DNA of 64,000 nucleotides from IMG/VR virus record IMGVR_UViG_3300048591_001244, positions 15,205 to 79,204 of that record; one strand, written 5' to 3'. Made by a program: the position numbers and the translations under genes. Each line of letters starts with the position of its first letter. Within the stretch, counting starts at the first letter, position 1. Under the pieces are notes generated by a model. That model worked only from the letters and a program-made list of their open reading frames with translations, was not told where the DNA came from and ran no database searches. Positions 13,921-49,751 of this stretch are shown piece by piece. The DNA is from a virus.

Positions 13921-15501
13921 TTAATCTGGAATAAAAATATCTCTTCCTTGTTCGTTCTTCAAAATTTTCCCAGGCATTCCATTTACAATAACCGGCGATC
14001 CTTCAGGATAATTTTGTCCTTTAATATAAGGTCTAACCGGTCCGGAATCATTTTGACTTTGATCATAATTGAAGTTGTCATTGACCTTCCAGTGCTTACC
14101 CATTTCAAGAGCCATAGGCTGATCATCTTTTGGTAATGGCTTTCTTATTTTAAACTTGACAACGGTTCCTTTATCTGTTTGGGTAGAAGTGTATTTATCA
14201 GATCCGTCAATATCTCCTAATGACTCCCACAAATTTTCATTGTTCTCTCCATGAATAGTGAAATCTCCACTTCCAGAGAATCCTATCCCTGTATTATCAT
14301 CAATGATACCTGATTCATCTTCTGCAAATTTACGGAATAGATCGCCTTCCATTTCAATATTCCATTCAGTATAAAATTCTCCAAGTTTCTTATCAAAAAG
14401 AATCTTTCCTGTATTGGTAGCTTTAGCACTGCTCAGCAACATAGCTTGTTTGTCAGTAGGAATCTGATGGAAATCTTTTCCTGGATTATCTATTGATTCG
14501 CCTCTGGAAGAAACAATGATACCATCAGACAAATCTACTAATCCATCTGAACTATATGCATTTTTAATTATCTCAGGAGATATTCGAACATATCCTGTTG
14601 GTGATTCCATCGCCCTTTTCAACTGAGTTTGGAACGGATCAAGTAACACACCACCATTTGCTCCACCGCCAGCGCCACCTCTGCCAGTATTAGGGTTGAA
14701 TATCTTAACATCCGAAGGAGCCTGTCCCGGATCTGCAAAGCCTTCACCTGTCTTAACAATATATGTTGCAAGGTCATTTTTGTAAAGCTTCTCTCTAATT
14801 GCAGGATCGAGAGATTGAAACTCTTTTGTGGCTACACGCCTTGCAATAGGATTGGCAAGAACAAGATCCGCTGCAGCTCTCAAATCTTCATTTCTCTGAT
14901 AGGTATATGTCCTCCCATCTTCAGTAGCACCAAGACCTTGAGCTTTGAGATTTTTAAAGATGTCAGCGACAGATTTGCCAAGATCAAATTTGGTATCAGG
15001 ATTTATGAAAGTGTATTTTTTGCGTTCCTGAGCATTGATATCAGTAGTACCAAATGTCCTGTAATTTTCAATTTCATCAAGCATCTCCTGAACATGAGGA
15101 TCATCTTTTGCAGCATCAGGATTTTCATGAAGCCATTTCATTGTAGCATCGTATTCAGTCCGGAAATTCATGTCTTCAGAAACAATGTCATTGTCAACAA
15201 GCTCTTGTTTCATCATTTTAAACTGCAACATCTTTGCAGGATTAAGATGAAGATCATTGTTTTGAAGGACAAACTTACCCATCTCAGTAAGCTTCTGCTT
15301 ATAGAAATCATTGAGTCTTTGACGATTATAGGGACTGCTGACAGAAGCAAGTTTAAAGTCCTCTCCAAGAAGCTTTGCCTTGTTCTCTGCATCTACACGA
15401 GTCTGTCTTTCATATGCGCGCTCTTGTAAATTCCGTTGCATTCTTGCATCGTAATCAACTTTAACATTTGCGCCTTGATATACTCCGATATTTAATGGCA
15501 T
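13921..15501 (-). CDS. Internal (cargo/ejection) virion protein
   Basis: 526 aa, helical N-terminal half, located between the cargo protein and RNAP as in crAss-like gene order. Confidence 0.6.
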   Translation of the reverse strand: MPLNIGVYQGANVKVDYDARMQRNLQERAYERQTRVDAENKAKLLGEDFKLASVSSPYNRQRLNDFYKQKLTEMGKFVLQNNDLHLNPAKMLQFKMMKQELVDNDIVSEDMNFRTEYDATMKWLHENPDAAKDDPHVQEMLDEIENYRTFGTTDINAQERKKYTFINPDTKFDLGKSVADIFKNLKAQGLGATEDGRTYTYQRNEDLRAAADLVLANPIARRVATKEFQSLDPAIREKLYKNDLATYIVKTGEGFADPGQAPSDVKIFNPNTGRGGAGGGANGGVLLDPFQTQLKRAMESPTGYVRISPEIIKNAYSSDGLVDLSDGIIVSSRGESIDNPGKDFHQIPTDKQAMLLSSAKATNTGKILFDKKLGEFYTEWNIEMEGDLFRKFAEDESGIIDDNTGIGFSGSGDFTIHGENNENLWESLGDIDGSDKYTSTQTDKGTVVKFKIRKPLPKDDQPMALEMGKHWKVNDNFNYDQSQNDSGPVRPYIKGQNYPEGSPVIVNGMPGKILKNEQGRDIFIPD

Positions 15502-18886: not shown

Positions 18887-21800
18887 TTAGTATGCTTTTC
18901 GATATGTTATAATAACAGTATTGAGAACAGTCCTCTCATTCTTACTGAATCTTGGAGATCCATTTAACCGATTGTCCTTTTCCATCTCTACACCCATTTG
19001 AACATCGACAAGTCGACCATCTGTTGATAGTGGAACGGAAGAAAGCCACACCTTGTTGCGATATTCATATTCTGAATGATTAACCAAATCTAAGTCCGTT
19101 GCACTCTGATCAGACGTTGATGCAGTAAGTCTATCAAAAAAGGCTTTACTGCCCTGAAATTCAAAGTTGTCAAAGACTTTTTGCATTCTTGGATCTTTGG
19201 TTAAAGTAATGAATTTCAATAATGACGGATGAACCCTTCCATAATATTTTCCAACATCTCCTAAGTTGTGCATCCACAGCTCATTCTTCTTACTCGACTG
19301 AGCCCAAAACAAAGGAAACAATGCAGGGTTCTGTCCTCCCGTATGCGTATAAGGCTGAATGCATATCCATGTATCCTGATCTGTTAATCCATGGACTAAA
19401 TCTCCTTCAACATAGTTTCCCGGAGCCAAAACACCAAGATTCAAACTCTCAGAATTTGTTATCAGGTCTTCTCCCCAAGCATGGTATAGAGTAGGCAGAA
19501 AAGGGTAAAACCCAGCGAACTGAGGTTTAAGATGATCAAAAGCCAAAGTAAAGTCACCGGTATCAGTCCCCCGTACTGTAATGTAAGTTTTCTTGTTTTT
19601 AAAGTCATGTCCTGAAATTACACCTACCCTCAAAAATGGCGTATCGCCAGAGAGTAGATTTCCATTAATTCTTTTCTGTAAAAAGGAGTTCATTCCTTTC
19701 ACCGCACCAAGTTCTACAATCTCCTGTCCTAGCGACATGTAACACAAAGTCCTTCTTTTCACGTCCATCCATACAAAACCTTGAGGCGTTTCTGTCAATC
19801 CAAACTGATGTTGATTACCATAGAACCTACTACGCTCGTCATATCTTTCCATTACGCCACCTTCTCCCATTGTGACAGCCTGACCTAAAGAAGTCGCTAA
19901 AGCGGCTCTCTCATTGACAGGAATATATCCTGTAGCGTCCTCCTGCCAGTAGAACAACTTCATTGCTTTTGCCATGAAATTTGTAATAGGACCATTCAAG
20001 CCATTGACATCTCTGAAATTCCCGGAAGAGAACCTTCGAAAAGAATTGATCTGTTCACCAGGAGTTTTACGGAAAGAGTAAAGTCCACGATATGGATATT
20101 CATTGACCGGCCTGTAGTTTTCCGGCGCCGAATCATAGGGAACAGTCAAATGATGATTTGAATATGCTTGATTATAAAGCCACTGCTCAATATTGGTATT
20201 GGAAAGGTTAGCTGTCTTTGCAGCTGTACGGCCTTCTCTAAGCAAGAAATTAGCATGAGATTCCAATGGAATACCTACCAAGAAACGATAAGAATCTGTA
20301 TTTCCATCATAGTTTTGCTCTTTAGCAAAACAATGTAGTCCGATCGTAGCATCACCACCGAAAACTTCTATCCCGCTGATAATACCATTGCCAGCAACAA
20401 GGGCAGACATGAAATTGCTATTGAAGCTTTGAAAATGACCAATTGGAATGTATTGATTATTAGCCTTTGCAGAATTTGAAGATCCTCCATAAAGGACAAC
20501 ATTATTCTTTTTCAAATTAACAACCGGGCGGATATGATCAAACTGGCCAACCCTACTTGGATTCCAGTCAGTAACAATAACAGCTCCTCTTGCTCCAATG
20601 GCATCTTTTACGGTTCCGCCTCCTATGCTAATTCCCGGCGGAGAAAGCGTAGGACTTGCTCTCATTATATTTTCAAAAGAATTACCATTGGCATTACCGG
20701 TTCCTCCTATATCAAATTCAGCAACAGAATTTCCAGAATCTATTGGATGAATAACTCCTTGCCTTCCTGTATTTGGCTGAGCATGAACAAATTTTTGTTG
20801 CCATGTTTGGCTACCGACAAGTTTGTTTACTATTCCTCCGGCAGAAGCAGCATATTCCATTACCACTTCCATCTTGGTAACTTCATTGAAAGAAGGAAGG
20901 CCATTGTGACGCAACTGAAAGTCTGGAGAATAGAACATCTCCATATTTGGAATCAATGGATGCAAAGCATAGTCATTTGAATGACTGGGCTGAGACATTG
21001 CTATTGGACCTACCGTTCCAAAACCATTGCCAATTATAGGATAGCAAGTACCCTGAGCGACAATAGTAGAATCTAAAGGACATCTTAAAATTGAAAATCC
21101 ACTGAAATAATTTGGAAGTTCGGCGACAGTAATACCTAAAGCCGTGGCAAGACCATTAAAATCAATATTGTCAAAGACTACACCAATTGAACGAACAGTA
21201 GATCTTGGCCAGCCAAGATAGTTCCCATCCATTTCAATAACATCCATATCAAATCCGATGACATTTCCATCATCATCTAAGTCAGCAGCCTTTTTATATC
21301 GTGCCGGAATCTTCTTATCTGCAATCCATCTGGCATAGGTAATGTTCCCGGCCAGATCATGCATTCCAATAGCATATCGATATGTTTCATCACGCCAGAG
21401 ACTTTTTGACCAATAGTTAAATGTCATCCCAGCACCATCAGCAAAGTCATTATCAAGAACAACATCATTATAAACAGGCCCGGCTATTGGATGATCATAC
21501 TTTTTTATTCTGATAATTGACTGTATTGTAGCTCCATTAAATGCTCTTGCTTCTTCAGCTAAAGCCAATCCATTTGTTGACGGCCTTAATCCTGTAAATA
21601 CATCTCCAGGGAAATACTGAGTTCCACCAATCGGATACCTAACAAAAGAACCTGCAGGACCAACAACTTTATAGGTTTGGTTCCAGCGGATTCCGGTAAG
21701 AGTTAAAATAGGATTCTGACTTGGTAAATGTCCCAAGAAATTTGTACTGCCATATCCCTGATCATCATGAGTACGATCAAGCTTAATACATTTTACAGAA

Positions 21801-23062
21801 ACACCTGCACTTGCATCCCAAGCAAAGTCTTTAGAATAGACAATGTTTCCCGGAAAGAAAATATTGTTGACAGTAGCAATGGTCTTAACTTTCTCAATTC
21901 TAAGAAGAACCTGAGTGATATCTTCTTCTGTCAGCTGAGTAAGGTATTCACGCCCTGTAAAGTTTACTAAAATAGTATCTCCATCTTCTACATCACCGGT
22001 GGTAACATTGGCATTGGAAACAGTACCGTCATAAATAACAACAGGCTCTTCATAAACATTTAAGTCCGTTCCAACAATCATAGCAACCCTGAGTCTGGTG
22101 TACTTTCTATCCAGATTAGTTATCTCAAGTTGAATTCCCTGAGAGGACAAAGTTCCATATGGATGACCTTGATGATTAGAATAGCTTGTAATGACATTTG
22201 TAACTGCATTAGGTCCGGCCACACGAATAGGAAAAGTAGGCATAGACCAATTTGTTGCAGCGCCATCATTATCCAATAGCTGATAGACAAAAGTATAAAC
22301 TCCACATGGAGCATTTCCAACAAGAGGTTTCTTGAATTTTATTTGTCCTGCTTTAAATATAGGAGTCCAGTCAAGAAGCTCCAAAGGAATGTAATCGATC
22401 AGCCTGAATGGATTTCCTGATGGGTTGGCAAATACGGCTCCGGTAGCAGTAAAAACAGTCCCTGCAGTTTCTCCCGGACCATACAAAGTACTGTTGTAGA
22501 TTATCTGTCCCTGAGCAACCATATACTGATTTCCCGCAACCAAAGAAGCCGGGTTAGTATATAAATTATGAAGCTTTGTATTTAAAATATTTAATGTCCG
22601 CGGAGGATTAAAATTGTCTGTCCAATAGCTTCCCTCAACAAAACTATTTTCCGGAAACAAAATTCCTTCAATAGCATAACGCTCCTGAAAGTTTAGTCCG
22701 ATATGATTGTATAAAGGAGTGTATGTTGCCGTTAAATTTTGCTTATTGATTTCAAGAATACCAATCTCACCATTATGACGAAGTGTATTACCGATCCATG
22801 CTGAATGAACAACAATTCTTCCCTGACTTCCGGAAAGGCGAAGAGGAGAATATCCAGGAGTTAAATTTTGAATAGAGATGTTTCCTTCAGGAGAAGTTAT
22901 AGCAAAGCTTGTTCCACCGGTATTTATCAGGTGAAAGTTTTGTAAATCAAATAGCGTTCCTTCAGGCTGATCGTAGAAGTCCTGAACAACACCGTCTTTA
23001 AACTCCTGCGCGTATTCCATAGTTTGGTTCGTTTCCCAGCCAGAAAGCATTTGCATATCCAC
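18887..23062 (-). CDS. Tail muzzle / stabilisation protein (start may be ATG 23020)
   Basis: 1391 aa beta-rich; YWTDNFNPPRTLNI, RDETYRYAI, YGNQHQFG and KVFDNFEF motifs typical of crAss muzzle proteins; gene order. Confidence 0.8.
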   Translation of the reverse strand: MDMQMLSGWETNQTMEYAQEFKDGVVQDFYDQPEGTLFDLQNFHLINTGGTSFAITSPEGNISIQNLTPGYSPLRLSGSQGRIVVHSAWIGNTLRHNGEIGILEINKQNLTATYTPLYNHIGLNFQERYAIEGILFPENSFVEGSYWTDNFNPPRTLNILNTKLHNLYTNPASLVAGNQYMVAQGQIIYNSTLYGPGETAGTVFTATGAVFANPSGNPFRLIDYIPLELLDWTPIFKAGQIKFKKPLVGNAPCGVYTFVYQLLDNDGAATNWSMPTFPIRVAGPNAVTNVITSYSNHQGHPYGTLSSQGIQLEITNLDRKYTRLRVAMIVGTDLNVYEEPVVIYDGTVSNANVTTGDVEDGDTILVNFTGREYLTQLTEEDITQVLLRIEKVKTIATVNNIFFPGNIVYSKDFAWDASAGVSVKCIKLDRTHDDQGYGSTNFLGHLPSQNPILTLTGIRWNQTYKVVGPAGSFVRYPIGGTQYFPGDVFTGLRPSTNGLALAEEARAFNGATIQSIIRIKKYDHPIAGPVYNDVVLDNDFADGAGMTFNYWSKSLWRDETYRYAIGMHDLAGNITYARWIADKKIPARYKKAADLDDDGNVIGFDMDVIEMDGNYLGWPRSTVRSIGVVFDNIDFNGLATALGITVAELPNYFSGFSILRCPLDSTIVAQGTCYPIIGNGFGTVGPIAMSQPSHSNDYALHPLIPNMEMFYSPDFQLRHNGLPSFNEVTKMEVVMEYAASAGGIVNKLVGSQTWQQKFVHAQPNTGRQGVIHPIDSGNSVAEFDIGGTGNANGNSFENIMRASPTLSPPGISIGGGTVKDAIGARGAVIVTDWNPSRVGQFDHIRPVVNLKKNNVVLYGGSSNSAKANNQYIPIGHFQSFNSNFMSALVAGNGIISGIEVFGGDATIGLHCFAKEQNYDGNTDSYRFLVGIPLESHANFLLREGRTAAKTANLSNTNIEQWLYNQAYSNHHLTVPYDSAPENYRPVNEYPYRGLYSFRKTPGEQINSFRRFSSGNFRDVNGLNGPITNFMAKAMKLFYWQEDATGYIPVNERAALATSLGQAVTMGEGGVMERYDERSRFYGNQHQFGLTETPQGFVWMDVKRRTLCYMSLGQEIVELGAVKGMNSFLQKRINGNLLSGDTPFLRVGVISGHDFKNKKTYITVRGTDTGDFTLAFDHLKPQFAGFYPFLPTLYHAWGEDLITNSESLNLGVLAPGNYVEGDLVHGLTDQDTWICIQPYTHTGGQNPALFPLFWAQSSKKNELWMHNLGDVGKYYGRVHPSLLKFITLTKDPRMQKVFDNFEFQGSKAFFDRLTASTSDQSATDLDLVNHSEYEYRNKVWLSSVPLSTDGRLVDVQMGVEMEKDNRLNGSPRFSKNERTVLNTVIITYRKAY

Positions 23063-44188: not shown

Positions 44189-44436
44189 CAAAAATTAATC
44201 AAGAACTAATACATACCCTCTCAGCTTCAGAAGCTCAGGAAGGTATTGTTGAAATTGAAAAACTAATGGCTAAGCATCAAGAGGTCTGCTCTCGTATCAG
44301 TACTGATATGGAGCCGGAAGAACTGTTCTACCTACGAATAGAAGCTGCCATGACTGAAAGAGAGCTGCTTGTGGCTAAGAAAAAGATGAGACAACAAATG
44401 AAACGCAAACAAGTTCTCGGGGAGGTGTCATGTTAG
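44185..44436 (+). CDS. Hypothetical coiled-coil protein
   Basis: 83 aa, ATGA overlap with the previous gene. Confidence 0.55.
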   Translation: MTKINQELIHTLSASEAQEGIVEIEKLMAKHQEVCSRISTDMEPEELFYLRIEAAMTERELLVAKKKMRQQMKRKQVLGEVSC

Positions 44437-44523
44437 ATATCCAACAATCACCGCAGAAACGAAAAGCGAGGAAGCAATTATAGGATTAAAACTGCAAGAC
44501 AGAAAAAATGCAAAGTACGTGCC

Positions 44524-44640
44524 GCAGCTAAACGCTGTTGGCGATTTGAAATACGAAATTATCAATCTAAAAATAAAGTAACAATGGAAAACGAAAATTT
44601 GAATACATCAGAAGCCGCCAATAGCGATTTAGGTGCTGTT
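44524..44640 (+). repeat. attC-like hairpin H1 (AAC box degenerate, GTAC)
   Basis: Arms 44524-44543 GCAGCTAAACGCTGTTGGCG / 44616-44636 CGCCAATAGCGATTTAGGTGC, then T-GTT. Confidence 0.7.
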
Positions 44641-44874
44641 AGTGGCAGTAGGGATTCTCAGGAAGATTGGTATGATGATGAATATTACGAGGGACAGCCG
44701 CACGAGGATTGCCCTAAATGTGGTAGAAGCTATGACCATATTGATTTTGATTACCAAAGCTGCTCTAAATGCGGCTGGGATGCTGAAAATGAAAAATGGA
44801 CAGAAGCCCGTGAGCCATCTGATGATGATTATTTAAATGGGGGTGCGGACATTCTTACTGGAAGGTGGTATTAG
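44584..44874 (+). CDS. Cassette 1 cargo: acidic zinc-ribbon protein (CxxC...CxxC); start codon lies in the H1 loop
   Basis: Only Met is at 44584; reads through GTTAGTGGCAGT = VSGS; stop abuts the 3' IR. Confidence 0.7.
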   Translation: MENENLNTSEAANSDLGAVSGSRDSQEDWYDDEYYEGQPHEDCPKCGRSYDHIDFDYQSCSKCGWDAENEKWTEAREPSDDDYLNGGADILTGRWY

Positions 44875-44880
44875 TATTGC

Positions 44881-45012
44881 CACTAACGTGTTTGCGCTTG
44901 GCGCAGTGGCGGATTTCGGAGCGAAAAACTTTCAAACCACCACTAAAGCTGATGCGAGGCACAATGTTGAATTAACCACTAAAACCGCCATTGAGCCAAA
45001 CGCATGTTATGC
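44881..45012 (+). repeat. attC-like hairpin H2
   Basis: CACTAAC-N5-arm 44893-44912 / arm 44985-45004-T-GTTATGC. Confidence 0.8.
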
Positions 45013-45146
45013 TCTCGTTGCGGTTCATTAAGCAGAACTTTCAATCGAAGCAAGGTGTTTTTAATCTTTTTTTGTGCGGTGGTCAAAAAAATATCAACAT
45101 TGAAAATCAGCACTTTAGAGATAATAATACAAATAAGTGAAAAATA

Positions 45147-45190
45147 TTTGTAAAAATGCTTGGTGGTTACAAATAAGCGGCTTATATTTG
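45147..45190 (+). promoter_or_regulatory. Bacteroidota sigma70-type promoter inside cassette 2
   Basis: TATATTTG (TAnnTTTG, -7 box) at 45183-45190 with TTG/TTTG upstream. Confidence 0.55.
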
Positions 45191-45221
45191 TACTGTCATT
45201 AACAATCAAAATAACAAGAAA

Positions 45222-45647
45222 ATGAAAAATTTAATCAAAAACACAATCATCAGACAAGCAATCGAATTAGGTTTTGACTTTGAACAATTCACTAACGATG
45301 CAGATTTGCAAGAAGTAAGCGAAGCACTTATGGACTTCTTTAACGAAAATTCAGACAAGTTGCCAAAACTTGAAGATGCGTGCGAAGTAACAAGCAACGG
45401 AAGAACACAACACGTAAGCTATGGCGATTTTTGGTCTGATGGAGAGATAGTTAATTTTTCAGACAACTGGCACAAATCACCTGAAACAAAAGTTTTTCAC
45501 TCTGATTTTGTAATGGAAGATACTGACGGATTGATGAAAAATATGAACTTGTATTATTTAGTTGGCGAAACTGATTACAACGCACCTGACGGCTACTATT
45601 ACAGCAAAAGCGAAAAAAGACACGTAAAAGAAGAAGAAAATGCGTAA
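45222..45647 (+). CDS. Cassette 2 cargo, hypothetical protein
   Basis: 141 aa, A-rich leader, follows a promoter. Confidence 0.65.
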   Translation: MKNLIKNTIIRQAIELGFDFEQFTNDADLQEVSEALMDFFNENSDKLPKLEDACEVTSNGRTQHVSYGDFWSDGEIVNFSDNWHKSPETKVFHSDFVMEDTDGLMKNMNLYYLVGETDYNAPDGYYYSKSEKRHVKEEENA

Positions 45648-45855
45648 GATTTTTCACTTAGAAATCAAATCGGAAAGCTCCCATAAATACTACGGGAGCT
45701 TATCCGCTTTATGCTCTGAAAACCCAAATTTGGGTATTTCAAAATTCACACTTGACAGATTTGATTTTACAGAACCTTTTGAAAATGCAACTTGCATTAT
45801 CCGAAAATCAGTAATGAAAACTACTGGAAGCGTGGGAGAAAAAGTTAAATGGTAA
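45640..45855 (+). CDS. Cassette 2 cargo, small putative DNA-binding protein
   Basis: 71 aa, YYGSLSAL...LGISKFTL; overlaps the previous stop. Confidence 0.55.
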   Translation: MRKIFHLEIKSESSHKYYGSLSALCSENPNLGISKFTLDRFDFTEPFENATCIIRKSVMKTTGSVGEKVKW

Positions 45856-45962
45856 ATTAGAGAACAACACGAATTTAATTATTAAGTAAAAAACGCTCAC
45901 TTTAGCAGTACGCCCCTGCTTTTGTATAGCGTATGTTATAGGGCGTTTTTAATTTAATCAAA

Positions 45963-46157
45963 ATGAGAACAGTAGAAGTGACAGTAACTTACAAGTATGA
46001 GCTTGAAATTGACGACAACAACGAGATTGTCAAAGAGTATGAAAGCGAAAACGAATTATTGGTGGATTGTGCCACTTATCGTTTCTCAACAGGATTACCT
46101 GTAATTGGTGATGGTGGGGTAAAAGTTAAGGATGTCGAATTGGTCGAGGTTTCTTAA
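45963..46157 (+). CDS. Cassette 3 cargo, hypothetical protein
   Basis: 64 aa bounded by IRs 45935-45948 / 46156-46169. Confidence 0.65.
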   Translation: MRTVEVTVTYKYELEIDDNNEIVKEYESENELLVDCATYRFSTGLPVIGDGGVKVKDVELVEVS

Positions 46158-46162
46158 ATGCC

Positions 46163-46293
46163 CTATAACGTAAAAGTATAAAAGCAGGTGGGGATTGAAC
46201 GGCAAACACGTTTCGACTTGCACAAAACTAAATAAACAGCCGAGGTGGTTAAAAATAGCACATAACCCCACTTGATTTTATACAGTGTTGTGT
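46163..46293 (+). repeat. attC-like hairpin H4
   Basis: CTATAAC-N6-arm 46176-46193 / arm 46266-46283-AGT-GTTGTGT. Confidence 0.8.
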
Positions 46294-46306
46294 GCAGTTA
46301 TTTATT

Positions 46307-46627
46307 ATGTTTAAATTACATTATGCAAGTTTAGATTTAGGGAATAATGATATTCCTTGTTTTGAGTTCAAAAAACATTCTCAAATGGTTGATTTTATTG
46401 ATGAAAAATGTATCAATAGAAATGGAAAAGTTGTTTGGCTTTTGGCTAAAGAAGATTTTACAGATGTTTTTATTTCTGAAAATCATTTAAGTATTCAGGA
46501 TTTTTTAAGTAAAAAAGATTGCTGGCAAACAACTGGTAATTATTTTCTTCAAGAATATACAAGTTTTGAAGATGCTTATCGTGTCGCATTAGATATGTCA
46601 GAAATTAGTCCGCTGTGTTATTCATAA
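46307..46627 (+). CDS. Cassette 4 cargo, hypothetical protein
   Basis: ATG 46307; stop lies within the 3' IR 46624-46638. Confidence 0.65.
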   Translation: MFKLHYASLDLGNNDIPCFEFKKHSQMVDFIDEKCINRNGKVVWLLAKEDFTDVFISENHLSIQDFLSKKDCWQTTGNYFLQEYTSFEDAYRVALDMSEISPLCYS

Positions 46628-46641
46628 TTGCACACAACATC

Positions 46642-46914
46642 ATGAACAACTATCGCTCAATTGACAAAAAAACACCTGAAGTTGTTGACAATACAACAAA
46701 TGATACATATCCTAAAACCCTATACATTCGAAATGAAGTGGGAGGAATGGTGTGGCAAGTATATCATGTTAATAACATAACAGAAGCTCTCAATCTCGTT
46801 AAAAATGCTGTTAAAAATGGATTTTATGGCAACCATACATTAGAAGACCATACAAATGAAACAGAAACATGGCCTGATTGGAGAAAAACAGCACATCCAG
46901 ACATCTTTAAATAA
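46642..46914 (+). CDS. Hypothetical protein
   Basis: ATG 46642 in frame with track ORF 46615-46914. Confidence 0.55.
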   Translation: MNNYRSIDKKTPEVVDNTTNDTYPKTLYIRNEVGGMVWQVYHVNNITEALNLVKNAVKNGFYGNHTLEDHTNETETWPDWRKTAHPDIFK

Positions 46915-46922
46915 CATAAACC

Positions 46923-47291
46923 ATGAAAATAAAAGACATACTAAAGAAATACCTTCCTTATCACATAGTAAAAGAAATAACAGAAGCTATGAAATCACAG
47001 GGAAGAGGACACGAGCTAAATCGCTTTAATTATGCGGTAAAATCACCACATTCAATAATAGGGCTTTCATTTGAATGGGCTATAAAAAACTACTTGAATA
47101 AAAATGACATCTATAAAGATGATAGTGACTTTCAGGATATCATTATTAATTCTTTCTATAATCAACACAATGAAGAAGAAGGTCGGCTAGATGTAAATGA
47201 CAATCCCTGGAAAGACAAATTAGATTATGTACATAATCACTTCGAATTATTCTGTCAGTATGCACAAAATAACTGGAGAAAGATTAAATAA
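46923..47291 (+). CDS. Hypothetical protein
   Basis: 122 aa ORF. Confidence 0.55.
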   Translation: MKIKDILKKYLPYHIVKEITEAMKSQGRGHELNRFNYAVKSPHSIIGLSFEWAIKNYLNKNDIYKDDSDFQDIIINSFYNQHNEEEGRLDVNDNPWKDKLDYVHNHFELFCQYAQNNWRKIK

Positions 47292-47360
47292 AATAAATTT
47301 CATCCCTCGCATCTTGGTCGGTGCGGGGGATTTATAGACGGATGGAAAACTGAAAGTAAC

Positions 47361-47756
47361 ATGATAACAGAGACAAAAGAAATATATAAGTGCGACCATT
47401 GTAAAAAGATGTACCAAAGAAAGTCGGCTTGCATGAGGCACGAAGATGTTTGTTTTAAAAGCCCTGATTTTTTAAGACCATGCCATAGTTGCGTGAATCT
47501 TGAAAAGAGAACCACAACCGTATTTAGCGGACGTAGTGATGAAAACGGCAATGAATATGAAATGACCGTAAACCTTATGTTCTGTAAAAAAAGAGACTGC
47601 TTCATTCATCCACATAAAGTAGCGGTAAAGGGAAATGCTTTCGAGACTGGAGATAAAGAAAATATTGAAATGCCAAAAGAGTGTGAATTTTATGAAAATG
47701 AATATGCGTATGTGTTAAAAGACAATCTAACCCCAACCCATGAAAACCACCCCTGA
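47361..47756 (+). CDS. Cys-rich zinc-binding protein
   Basis: YKCDHCKK...CMRHE..C, CHSC and further Cys. Confidence 0.65.
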   Translation: MITETKEIYKCDHCKKMYQRKSACMRHEDVCFKSPDFLRPCHSCVNLEKRTTTVFSGRSDENGNEYEMTVNLMFCKKRDCFIHPHKVAVKGNAFETGDKENIEMPKECEFYENEYAYVLKDNLTPTHENHP

Positions 47757-48201
47757 CTACTTCAACGAAATAAAATGCCCGATTGTTAGGCGCAGGGCGA
47801 TAAGGAATTGCGATGAACCTGAAAAACAAGAGAGTAGTCTAAAATGGGCAATTCATGGAGGCTTCGTCTGGAGAGAAACTCCTGAAGGTGTTGCATACTG
47901 GAGTGAGGTTTACGAAAACCCACTCGCCCCATCCCCAGAACATCTACTACCTGATGGGTACAGGGAGGAGGCCGAGCCAAACTTGACGTTAGCAGCAGTA
48001 ACGGATTTAAAAATGGAACATTCAAAACAAGAAAAAGAAATTTACGAATTAGCAGAACTTTTGATGCAGTCTGAAAACTTAGAAGCAAGTGCAACTATCC
48101 TTCGTGATTTTGCTGAAAAATGTTACCAAGAAGGTGCAATAGATGCTCAAAATGATGCGGCAAAAGAAATACGTGAACACTATGTAGAAGGTGGTCGGTA
48201 G
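47740..48201 (+). CDS. In-frame fusion of a resident gene (FxWxxTPEG..YW motif) with cassette 5 cargo
   Basis: Cassette IR starts at 47988 inside the ORF; cassette's own ATG at 48013 is in frame. Confidence 0.6.
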   Translation: MKTTPDYFNEIKCPIVRRRAIRNCDEPEKQESSLKWAIHGGFVWRETPEGVAYWSEVYENPLAPSPEHLLPDGYREEAEPNLTLAAVTDLKMEHSKQEKEIYELAELLMQSENLEASATILRDFAEKCYQEGAIDAQNDAAKEIREHYVEGGR

Positions 48202-48208
48202 TTATTGC

Positions 48209-48342
48209 TGCTAACGCCCAAGCAGCTTTGCGTTCGGTGGCGTTTTTAAACCGAACGCTTCACTTAATAACAAAATTTGATATGGAAAAAAATGTAACAA
48301 CCAACACCTACCCACAGCATGACGCAAAACTGCCTGTTAGCG
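48209..48342 (+). repeat. attC-like hairpin H5
   Basis: GCTAAC-N6-GCAGCTTTGCGT (48222-48233) / ACGCAAAACTGC (48322-48333)-CT-GTTAGCG. Confidence 0.7.
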
Positions 48343-48497
48343 GTAGTTATTATTGGTATTGTCGATTCACTTTCAAAGGAGATAAATGTGATTTATACCT
48401 TACAGAAAGAAACAACTGCAAAACATTTAAGGAACTTCGTAGATGGTGGAGAAAAGAGAAACCAAACTTAAAACTTCTGTCAGCGGTCAGGAAATAA
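48282..48497 (+). CDS. Cassette 6 cargo; start codon lies in the H5 loop
   Basis: MEKNVTTNTYPQHDAKLP-VSGS-YYWY...; no other Met; stop lies within the 3' IR. Confidence 0.65.
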   Translation: MEKNVTTNTYPQHDAKLPVSGSYYWYCRFTFKGDKCDLYLTERNNCKTFKELRRWWRKEKPNLKLLSAVRK

Positions 48498-48501
48498 TTT
48501 C

Positions 48502-48653
48502 CGCTAACAAGCTGGTATGTGCTGTGCCAGCCACAAAATTAATAATCACGGCACTAACTTAACAGGCATAGCATATACCGTTTTCGGGCTTGGCGTTCGG
48601 TTTTGTGCGTAGGGCTTGTGGGTGGCAAAACTGACGCAAAACCCGTGTTATAT
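48502..48653 (+). repeat. Two fused attC-like hairpins H6a and H6b with no cassette between them
   Basis: Arms 48514-48528/48565-48579 and 48585-48605/48626-48645. Confidence 0.7.
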
Positions 48654-48743
48654 GAAGGTGGGATTTTCACGCACTACACTCGATTAGAAGCACGTAAAAA
48701 GAAAAAGAAAAAATGAGCGTGGGAAACAATTAAATCATTTAAA

Positions 48744-49241
48744 ATGCAAAAGAACATTTTATTATTTGACGTAGAAAGCACAAGTTTACACGGAACAGGA
48801 TTTGCCGTTGGTGCTATTGTAGTAAACAGAGGCGGAACAGAACTTGACCGATTTGAACTATTAAGCAAGGAGGGGGCTGAAAAAGCAAATGGTTGGGTTA
48901 AACAAAATGTAATACCTAATCTTTCTGATATGCCGACTTGCGAAACAGACAAAGAGCTTCGGGATGCTTTTTTCAACTTCTACGTAAAGCACAAAGAAAC
49001 GGCAGAAATTTGGAGCGATGTAAATTTTCCAGTTGAAACAAACTTTTTACACGCTATTGTAAATGATGCTCCGACAGAAAGAGAATGGTCAATGCCATAT
49101 CCCTTGTTTGATGCTTCAACATTAGTAGATGTAAGCATTGACCGATGTGCAGAATGTGGAATTGATGGATTGAGAAAGCACAACCCACTTGATGACAGCC
49201 GTGCAAGTGTTTACTTTCTTTTGAAATCATTGGGTCACTAA
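48744..49241 (+). CDS. Cassette 7 cargo: DEDDh-type 3'-5' exonuclease-like protein
   Basis: LLFDVEST (ExoI) and KHNPLDDS (ExoIII-h) motifs. Confidence 0.75.
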   Translation: MQKNILLFDVESTSLHGTGFAVGAIVVNRGGTELDRFELLSKEGAEKANGWVKQNVIPNLSDMPTCETDKELRDAFFNFYVKHKETAEIWSDVNFPVETNFLHAIVNDAPTEREWSMPYPLFDASTLVDVSIDRCAECGIDGLRKHNPLDDSRASVYFLLKSLGH

Positions 49242-49388
49242 ATCATTTGAGCGTGGGCAGATTTTTTCTTTTTCTTTTTCCCGAAAGTTCAATCGAAGCA
49301 CTCCTGCCCACTTTCATATAACAATATATATCCGCATCTGCAAAATAAAACTACCGAATAATATTACTAACGATTAATATCCAGACCC

Positions 49389-49751
49389 ATGAAAACAATA
49401 ATTAAAGACTTGACGGGTGAGATGCCTGTGCAAGATATTGATGAGAAGCTCGGAATCATCTTGATGAAACACTACAAAGGTAATGATTACATAACAGATG
49501 ATGCAGTCAACGACATCCTTGCCCTCTTCGCCGACAAGCCAAAAGGTAAGCCGATTGAGTTTGTGTGGTTTATTTCTTGTGATGGAGAAGAACTAAAGCC
49601 AACAATAAAACCATCAGATTTCTCTGAAATTAATTTAATTTATAAAGACTACCACGGGTATGATATTTTCATTACATTCGATAAAAATGGATGCAAATAC
49701 CAATATCACGGCCACTGGAACGATGGCTATGTTGAAGGGAATGATAACTGA
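49389..49751 (+). CDS. Hypothetical protein
   Basis: 120 aa ORF. Confidence 0.55.
   Translation: MKTIIKDLTGEMPVQDIDEKLGIILMKHYKGNDYITDDAVNDILALFADKPKGKPIEFVWFISCDGEELKPTIKPSDFSEINLIYKDYHGYDIFITFDKNGCKYQYHGHWNDGYVEGNDN

Follow-up and report, generated by a model that had tools for sequence, protein, structure and literature searches.

An array of small mobile units in a crAss-like phage combines two kinds of pairing, one between the ends of each unit and one within a hairpin beside it, and each carries a G.T wobble at a fixed position. The array lies at 44519-49322 of the window, the 64,000-nucleotide (nt) stretch of DNA analysed here (positions 15,205 to 79,204 of IMG/VR record IMGVR_UViG_3300048591_001244), which is part of a complete virus record of 79,204 base pairs (bp) with terminal repeats. 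It sits within a run of small plus-strand genes; the phage assignment is marked by a crAss-type muzzle protein (PF25731, encoded at 18887-23062 on the minus strand) and by an open reading frame (ORF) of 4,509 amino acids. Each complete cassette runs from GTT to AAC, and after most AAC ends comes a long hairpin with imperfect pairing, which we call the site. We think it probable that these are integron-type cassettes, that the strand bearing the G.T pairs is folded and cut by a host recombinase resembling IntI and XerA, and that the wobbles and the lopsided centre of the site select that strand.

Anatomy of the cassette ends and hairpin sites

An inverted-repeat scan of the whole window, in which GTT...AAC pairs were scored over 13 positions, bears out the observation on which the original prediction was built: in all six complete cassettes, position 11 counted from the G of GTT holds a G that faces T in the AAC-side repeat. 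It is also the sole mismatch in five of the six (12/13 positions match, with 11/13 in the sixth). The rest of the window holds two other 12/13 pairs, one of them low-complexity, and in these the mismatch falls elsewhere than position 11.

Conservation of the wobble was checked in 150 phage and bacterial loci, all oriented by their hairpin. A 15-base motif from the 'type 1' hairpin, the one that follows cassette 1, recovered ~25 true sites from IMG/VR, and a 21-base motif matched at least 120 genome contigs spanning Bacteroidota and Ignavibacteria; the bacterial loci are those among the matches listed for the latter motif, and several of the collected loci come from Bacteroidales. The prediction survives this enlargement, with G11 opposite T as the sole mismatch in 121 non-redundant pairs from 64 of the 150 loci. 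A single pair shows the opposite polarity, and no real cassette with a Watson-Crick pair at position 11 was found among the 150 loci. Five 'perfect' 13/13 pairs were rejected as cassettes, being low-complexity or not of the GTTA/GTTG type, and are probably chance matches.

The constraint on position 11 stands out against a variable background. All 121 pairs keep the AAC and the GTT and have a purine (A or G) at position 4, while positions 5-7, 9 and 13-14 vary with a partner that always matches. The GTT-side consensus is GTTAknnGyAGTnnTT, and the helix usually closes with T.T at position 16. The ends are thus complementary over 15 bp, cassette-specific, and differ from one another at 6 or more positions. 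A coding reason for G11 was considered, as three of the repeats read VSGS, and rejected, as elsewhere the repeat lies in another frame or outside an ORF. The parts of the array in the window are as follows.

Site A, 44519-44637, plus strand: hairpin site heading cassette 1, preceded by GTAC and not TAAC; 82% identity over 137 nt to a site in locus L057
Cassette 1, 44638-44887, plus strand: outer-repeat (R-box) halves GTTAGTGGCAGTA / TATTGCCACTAAC; G44648 opposite T44877
Site B, 44888-45005, plus strand: 'type 1' site of 118 nt with a 5-nt spacer, GTGTT, and 1 nt (T) before the next GTT; inner stem (L box) with C.A 44897/45000, G.A 44903/44994 and the fixed wobble G44906.T44991
Cassette 2, 45006-45868, plus strand: incomplete, its ends GTTATGCTCTCG... 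and ...AGAGAACAAC unpaired; cargo ORFs 45222-45647 and 45640-45855
Site C, 45869-45934, plus strand: short, degenerate hairpin site heading cassette 3
Cassette 3, 45935-46169, plus strand: G45945 opposite T46159
Site D, 46170-46286, plus strand: 117 nt, register 6/3; inner stem with G.A 46184/46275 and wobble G46187.T46272
Cassette 4, 46287-46638, plus strand: G46297 opposite T46628; no site after its AAC
Cassette 5, 47988-48215, plus strand: G47998 opposite T48205; within ORF 47740-48201, with only a decayed site remnant upstream
Site E, 48216-48335, plus strand: 120 nt, heading cassette 6; 3' arm partly decayed
Cassette 6, 48336-48508, plus strand: G48346 opposite T48498, with a second mismatch at position 9
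Hairpin F1, 48509-48579, plus strand: GGTATGTGCTGTGCC / GGCATAGCATATACC with two top-strand G.T pairs; probably the remnant of a cargo-less unit
Site F2, 48580-48646, plus strand: shortened site with a GTTTT spacer and a CGGGCTTGGCG arm, heading cassette 7
Cassette 7, 48647-49322, plus strand: G48657 opposite T49312; carries ORF 48744-49241

The hairpins start 5-6 nt after AAC and end 1-3 nt before GTT. The asymmetric offsets noted earlier (5-6 nt on one side, 0-3 nt on the other) are therefore real, with registers of 5/1 in site B and 6/3 in site D, and among 90 related sites 5/1 is the commonest (45/90), followed by 6/2, 6/3 and 5/2. The 'bulges' reported with them are not: the arms are gap-free over 20 positions in 38/51 hairpins and in 90/121 sites, and what fails to pair consists of mismatches and wobbles, with extrahelical bases not seen. 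The centre of the site is likewise asymmetric: the AAC arm contributes 8 nt, 5 of them unpaired, and the GTT arm 4 nt, 1 of them unpaired. As had been noticed from the window, the arm mismatches are rich in G.T on one strand; 38 hairpins carry 60 G.T/T.G wobbles on the phage top strand versus 29 C.A/A.C.

These departures from perfect pairing are not scattered along the inner stem. Counted from AAC in 68 unique hairpins, C.A occurs at nt 10 in 24 (35%), G.T or G.A at nt 16 in 43%, and G.T at nt 18-19 in 57 (84%). Within the L box this places C.A often at position 2, where it is itself conserved, a feature absent from the original prediction, and G.T or G.A at position 8. Covariation analysis of a 53-site alignment, proposed with that prediction, supports the inner stem strongly: its 18 pairs score 0.69 versus 0.17 in shuffled alignments (0 of 500 shuffles reach the observed score), 89% of cells are paired versus 58.5% in shuffles, compensatory changes occur in 16 of the 18 pairs, and slid controls score 0.07-0.13. 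One pair behaves differently. Pair 36-140 is G.U in 47 of the 53 sites and G-C once, with no double changes, while its neighbours show 12-24.

The stem opens GCTTGG...AGT opposite ATT...CCAAAC. Counting back from the G of pair 36-140, the 5' arm reads GCTTGGCGAAGT, which can be aligned with GTTAnnnGnAGT of the outer repeat, and ...CCAAAC closes the 3' arm; anchored on AGT, the same L box GCTTGGCGAAGT aligns with the R-box consensus GTTAknnGyAGT. The site therefore consists of an R box and an L box of ~15 bp that follow one grammar. Both boxes have G.T at their position 11, roughly a turn of the helix away from the GTT/AAC core.

The sites vary remarkably little in length, 118 nt being the mode. 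The 'type 1' loop is itself conserved: 44888-45005 and ~80 other loci are 72-95% identical across Bacteroidota orders and phages, with homology spanning TAAC to GTTA. A conserved loop and a fixed length suggest that the loop may serve some further function. By blastn against phage records, site B is the only part of the array with a match, in Flavobacterium psychrophilum phages. This hairpin is 71% identical to a stretch of F. psychrophilum phage 6H, which has an array of its own that likewise obeys the G/T rule at position 11. Neither Rfam (E up to 10) nor ARAGORN gave a match on the sites.

Unit boundary, strand polarity and recombinase

The mobile unit can be delimited from identical cassettes that occur in different contexts, which we found in two phage lineages (loci L001, L002, L051 and L118, and loci L103, L109 and L117). 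In 8/8 informative comparisons the upstream hairpin is kept and the downstream hairpin is different, and on both sides homology ends exactly at TAAC|G. As the upstream hairpin moves with the cassette, the unit is the site together with the GTT...cargo...AAC that follows it. Three cassette ORFs begin in the loop of the upstream site, exactly 54 nt before GTT (44584 in site A, for ORF 44584-44874; 48282 in site E; and 2743 in L001), and read M-x17-VSGS across it (44584-44650, 48282-48350 and L001 2743-2810). With the boundary at AAC|, loop start codon and cargo belong to one mobile unit, and 'donation' of a leader is not required.

Near-identical pieces of the array (window 44400-49400) are present in contigs of four wastewater, activated-sludge and bioreactor-sludge metagenomes from four separate studies (runs X1, X2, X4 and X5); array parts that these contigs do not cover carry no evidential weight either way. 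Contigs stop at 44888, 46170 and 48216, that is, after AAC plus G, and one fuses 48216 to 48587, giving an array with site E, cassette 6 and F1 missing. Cassette 5 occurs with other flanks, the breaks falling at 47988 and 48216, and in one contig ~405 nt of cassette 2 are swapped for 250 other letters.

Breaks at TAAC|G place the boundary AAC, the presumed point of cutting, on the strand bearing the G.T pairs. This AAC sits on the 5' arm, the arm on which tyrosine recombinases, by the polarity of their family, would be expected to cleave a folded site; for attC, the recombination site of integron cassettes, this is described in PMC5027507. We rebuilt each site as it would stand in a circle, from the cassette's own AAC end, its own upstream site and its own GTT end, and folded both strands with DNA parameters. 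The G.T strand is more stable in 63/68 rebuilt sites (mean -4.6 kcal/mol), in 68/68 when only the boxes are folded, and in 4/5 rebuilt sites from the window (site A, -24.1 kcal/mol for the sense strand versus -20.4 kcal/mol). The complement of the G.T strand has C.A mismatches at the wobble positions.

Cargo lies on the G.T (+) strand of the site in 32/35 phage cassettes and on the opposite (-) strand in 71/73 bacterial cassettes, where the layout of G|TT, gene and site is the canonical integron order. Since the bacterial genes are on the other strand, the definition in PMC5027507 makes the G.T strand the functional bottom strand, and it is because the phage cargo is flipped that the signal was originally seen on the top strand. 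The proposal that the top strand is the folded substrate is supported for the phage in that its gene-sense strand folds better and carries the break AAC, and has to be reworded for bacterial arrays, where the same strand is the functional bottom strand. Inversion switches were considered and rejected, as within each host type the G/A polarity keeps a single orientation with respect to the cargo. The opposite orientations argue that phage cassettes form a pool of their own, which is more than a set of cassettes captured from hosts.

No tyrosine recombinase, serine recombinase or Y1 transposase (PF01797) was found in the complete 79-kb phage genome, so the phage must rely on a host enzyme. When large ORFs around the bacterial sites were clustered, cargo dominated (beta-lactamase-fold proteins, C5 methylases and ABC ATPases), and the large neighbour that recurs most often is a tyrosine recombinase (PF00589 plus PF13495). 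It occurs in 8/120 bacterial loci of 8 kb or less, on a constant side relative to the site; in two further genomes it adjoins the first cassette, which directly follows the recombinase gene in L244 and lies ~400 nt from the mapped recombinase match in L245. The bacterial recombinases score ~172-228 bits with NF040815 and 170-226 bits with TIGR02249, below the cut-off of 265, and the latter match is split into two stretches that omit roughly model positions 180-236. In alignment with VchIntIA (2A3V), residues 11-182 and 205-275 correspond to IntI 10-181 and 247-317, leaving ~43 residues of the IntI-specific region (IntI 182-246) absent; archaeal XerA (5HXY) aligns with the recombinase end to end. 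The suspicion of a distinct recombinase family was well placed in that the enzyme beside bacterial arrays is a distinct branch, IntI/XerA-like and without the IntI insert. In the solved IntI complex, this insert reportedly takes part in the contacts with extrahelical bases. That complex contains specific enzyme contacts with two such bases (PMC5027507), and an enzyme without the insert would fit sites without bulges.

Several cargo features and other parts of the array merit mention. Bacterial cargo includes beta-lactamase-fold proteins and C5 cytosine methyltransferases (L123, L211, L201, L230 and others). Most cargo ORFs of the phage have no assigned function in PHROGs, and cassette interiors have no DNA relatives among the collected loci; ORF 48744-49241 of cassette 7 matches a PHROG annotated as RNase H (phrog_2259). 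This ORF is flanked by a perfect 19-bp purine/pyrimidine inverted repeat (48696-48714 / 49261-49279) and is also bracketed by the direct repeat GAGCGTGGG. The in-array stretch 46639-47987 has no recognisable sites; from it, ORF 47740-48201 crosses the decayed site remnant into cassette 5, and it has the look of backbone coding sequence fused to that of a cassette.

Proposed mechanism and its alternatives

We propose that, in a circular unit, the two cassette-specific ends would pair into the 15-bp R box beside the site's own stem. When single-stranded, the G.T strand would fold with its R and L boxes stacked around the lopsided centre, and two recombinase monomers, one per box, would each meet a wobble one turn from the core. 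The R-box AAC would be cut and exchanged with another site, and the product resolved by replication, as in integrons. On the complementary strand, C.A at the places of the wobbles would weaken the fold and erase the mark, so that wobbles and lopsided centre would take over the role in strand selection of extrahelical bases and the IntI insert. Cleavage of a single strand, action of the recombinase on these sites and recognition of the wobble are the parts of this scheme that go furthest beyond the observed anatomy.

Several points weigh against it. Two metagenome contigs begin at |GTT (45005 and 47988), so that either a cassette can part from its site or the site that heads it in those contigs is under 90% alike. 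The crossover is resolved only to the conserved TAAC|G, chiefly from two phage lineages. The recombinase is present in only the 8 of 120 short bacterial loci already mentioned and in 3/5 whole genomes with long arrays. Folds of the hairpin only (29 vs 22, mean -0.7 kcal/mol) and of the junctions in array form (4/6) barely separate the strands, and the asymmetry appears only once a cassette's own ends are joined to its site. The unpaired extra bases are on the AAC arm, while the classical extrahelical bases are on the opposite arm (PMC5027507), so the geometry is not a simple copy of attC. Finally, excision, single-strand cleavage and the role of the enzyme are all proposals drawn from sequence.

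Among the alternatives, the one that fares best, although we judge it unlikely, is that the wobbles are a passive by-product: G/A would reflect mutation bias on exposed single-stranded DNA or descent from a single ancestral site, and only the stability of the strand would matter. This would agree with classical attC, whose bottom strand is enriched in G:T only in the statistical sense, at no fixed positions (PMC5027507), and with the shared ancestry of many sites in one widespread 'type 1' family. A neutral wobble, though, would be expected to drift often to G-C or A-T, yet G.T persists in every one of the 121 pairs while the cassette-specific R-box arms around it differ at 6 or more positions, and the pair 36-140 has no double changes where its L-box neighbours have 12-24.

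It is improbable that the substrate is a duplex, in which the AAC-side repeat, the 8-nt spacer and the L-box arm would form a Xer/Cre-like core for exchange of two strands and the G/A asymmetry would be a mere difference between arms. The arrangement ATTnCnnnTAAC + 8 nt + GCTTGGCGAAGT does resemble two inverted 12-bp arms with an 8-bp overlap, and the recombinase is equally close to XerA and IntI. The centres of neighbouring sites differ, however (GTGTT, GTAAA, GCCCA, GTTTT and GTCCC), which would block exchange of the second strand. Furthermore, strong covariation of both helices would have no purpose in a duplex site, and a cassette-specific outer repeat makes sense only if the ends pair within a strand.

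A role in RNA, which the original prediction raised as a folded RNA substrate or an RNA-linked route of cassette formation, is very unlikely. A sense transcript would fold with G.U and the end repeat would close the messenger RNA, the hairpins serving processing or translation, or the cassettes having an RNA-linked origin; in favour, the G.T strand of the phage is the sense strand, the three ORFs above begin in the hairpin loop at the same distance from GTT, and RNA parameters favour the sense strand by 5.8-9.0 kcal/mol. In bacteria, the sites keep the same boundary polarity while lying antisense to the genes in those 71/73 cassettes. Site polarity is therefore independent of the direction of transcription and tracks the recombination boundary, which marks it as a feature of DNA and leaves the RNA proposal without support; additionally, no Rfam family matches, and the cassette boundaries are DNA break points.

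The ends of IS200/IS605 elements and REPs are likewise imperfect hairpins with strand-specific mismatches and a short conserved foot motif, but an HUH-type transposon (IS200/IS605, REP/RAYT), or modules shuffled like T4-like promoters and stem-loops, is scarcely credible here, as no Y1 transposase (PF01797) was found in the phage, the recurrent bacterial neighbour is a tyrosine recombinase, and pairing of cassette-specific ends across the cargo is foreign to IS200/IS605 and REP/RAYT elements.

Integron-type recombination of the folded G.T strand thus remains our preferred explanation. More tentatively, the arrays could represent a phylum-wide variant of the integron in which two fixed wobbles replace the extrahelical bases of attC and the insert of IntI. 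In that wider picture, which we regard as possible and no firmer than that, Bacteroidota phages, lytic and temperate, exchange early genes by means of an enzyme taken from the host; with inverted cargo, the strand that recombines doubles as the sense strand, and its RNA hairpin holds the start codon. The system itself appears, from the collected loci, to be common to Bacteroidota bacteria and their phages.

Strand choice is what ensures that integron cassettes are inserted in the right orientation, and explanations of it in the classical system invoke extrahelical bases, an unpaired spacer and the loop. A natural system without bulges and without the insert that reads them, yet with two fixed wobbles, would offer a simple alternative code for strand selection. 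It also supplies a search rule for arrays (GTTR, G at position 11 opposite T, and a 118-nt site), which may flag phage accessory genes as exchangeable units common to hosts.

Comparison with known systems

CTX phage offers a parallel for the proposed substrate, as the folded single strand of attP(+) mimics a duplex core for the Xer-type recombinase XerCD; mismatches in that fold permit only one of the strand exchanges, leaving replication to resolve the product. In that system it is the entire phage genome that enters dif, without cassettes, arrays or cassette-specific ends.

The nearest published description of arrays like these is that of the rAID-1 clusters of Bacteroidales, in which two or more co-oriented small low-GC genes have an XerD-like recombinase at the 5' end and whose authors call the repeated intergenic sequences reminiscent of integrons (Ross et al., bioRxiv 10.1101/471110). 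A comparable general layout is seen in L244, L245 and 8 further loci, the likeness being one of description only; the paper does not treat site structure, strand, crossover point or phages. We found no description of these sites in the published literature on attC and integron-like systems in Flavobacterium, Bacteroidota or phages. The IntegronFinder 2.0 survey lists hardly any integrons in Bacteroidetes, so arrays of this kind seem to have gone uncounted.

The likeness to classical attC (PMC5027507, PMC2727003) is extensive. Both have cassette-specific inverse cores (...AAC / GTTR..., with the R box conforming to RYYYAAC/GTTRRRY), an additional pair of boxes further in, a hairpin that pairs imperfectly below a long variable loop, a length within the known range of 57-141 bp, and a boundary at the conserved AAC/GTT; the bacterial arrays also share the gene-then-site layout and the recombinase gene at the array end. 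In both, the strand with the AAC that is cleaved in attC, and would be cleaved here, has more G:T and a lower folding energy, as an excess of G:T mispairs and a lower folding energy were reported for the bottom strand of classical attC (Nivina et al., PMC5027507). What is new relative to that excess is that two wobbles are fixed in position, whereas in classical attC they have no fixed positions.

Other differences are equally clear. The boxes are ~15 bp here and 7 in classical attC; the extrahelical bases opposite the cleaved AAC are a classical feature that is not seen here; the unpaired centre has 5 vs 1 nt, in contrast to 5-6 nt per arm in attC; and the loop keeps its sequence phylum-wide, whereas the terminal structure of attC is variable. 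The recombinase of bacterial arrays lacks the IntI insert and a TIGR02249 score above the cut-off, both of them classical, and the phage arrays differ further in having no recombinase and in their inverted cargo. The view that these sites are not canonical attC is therefore correct as regards the long boxes, the absence of extrahelical bases and the 5-vs-1-nt centre, and too strong as regards the R and L boxes, the boundary AAC and the gene-then-site layout, which are attC-like. The system is integron-like in its working, yet it departs from the classical one in three defining features, namely the extrahelical bases, the symmetric spacer and the IntI insert.

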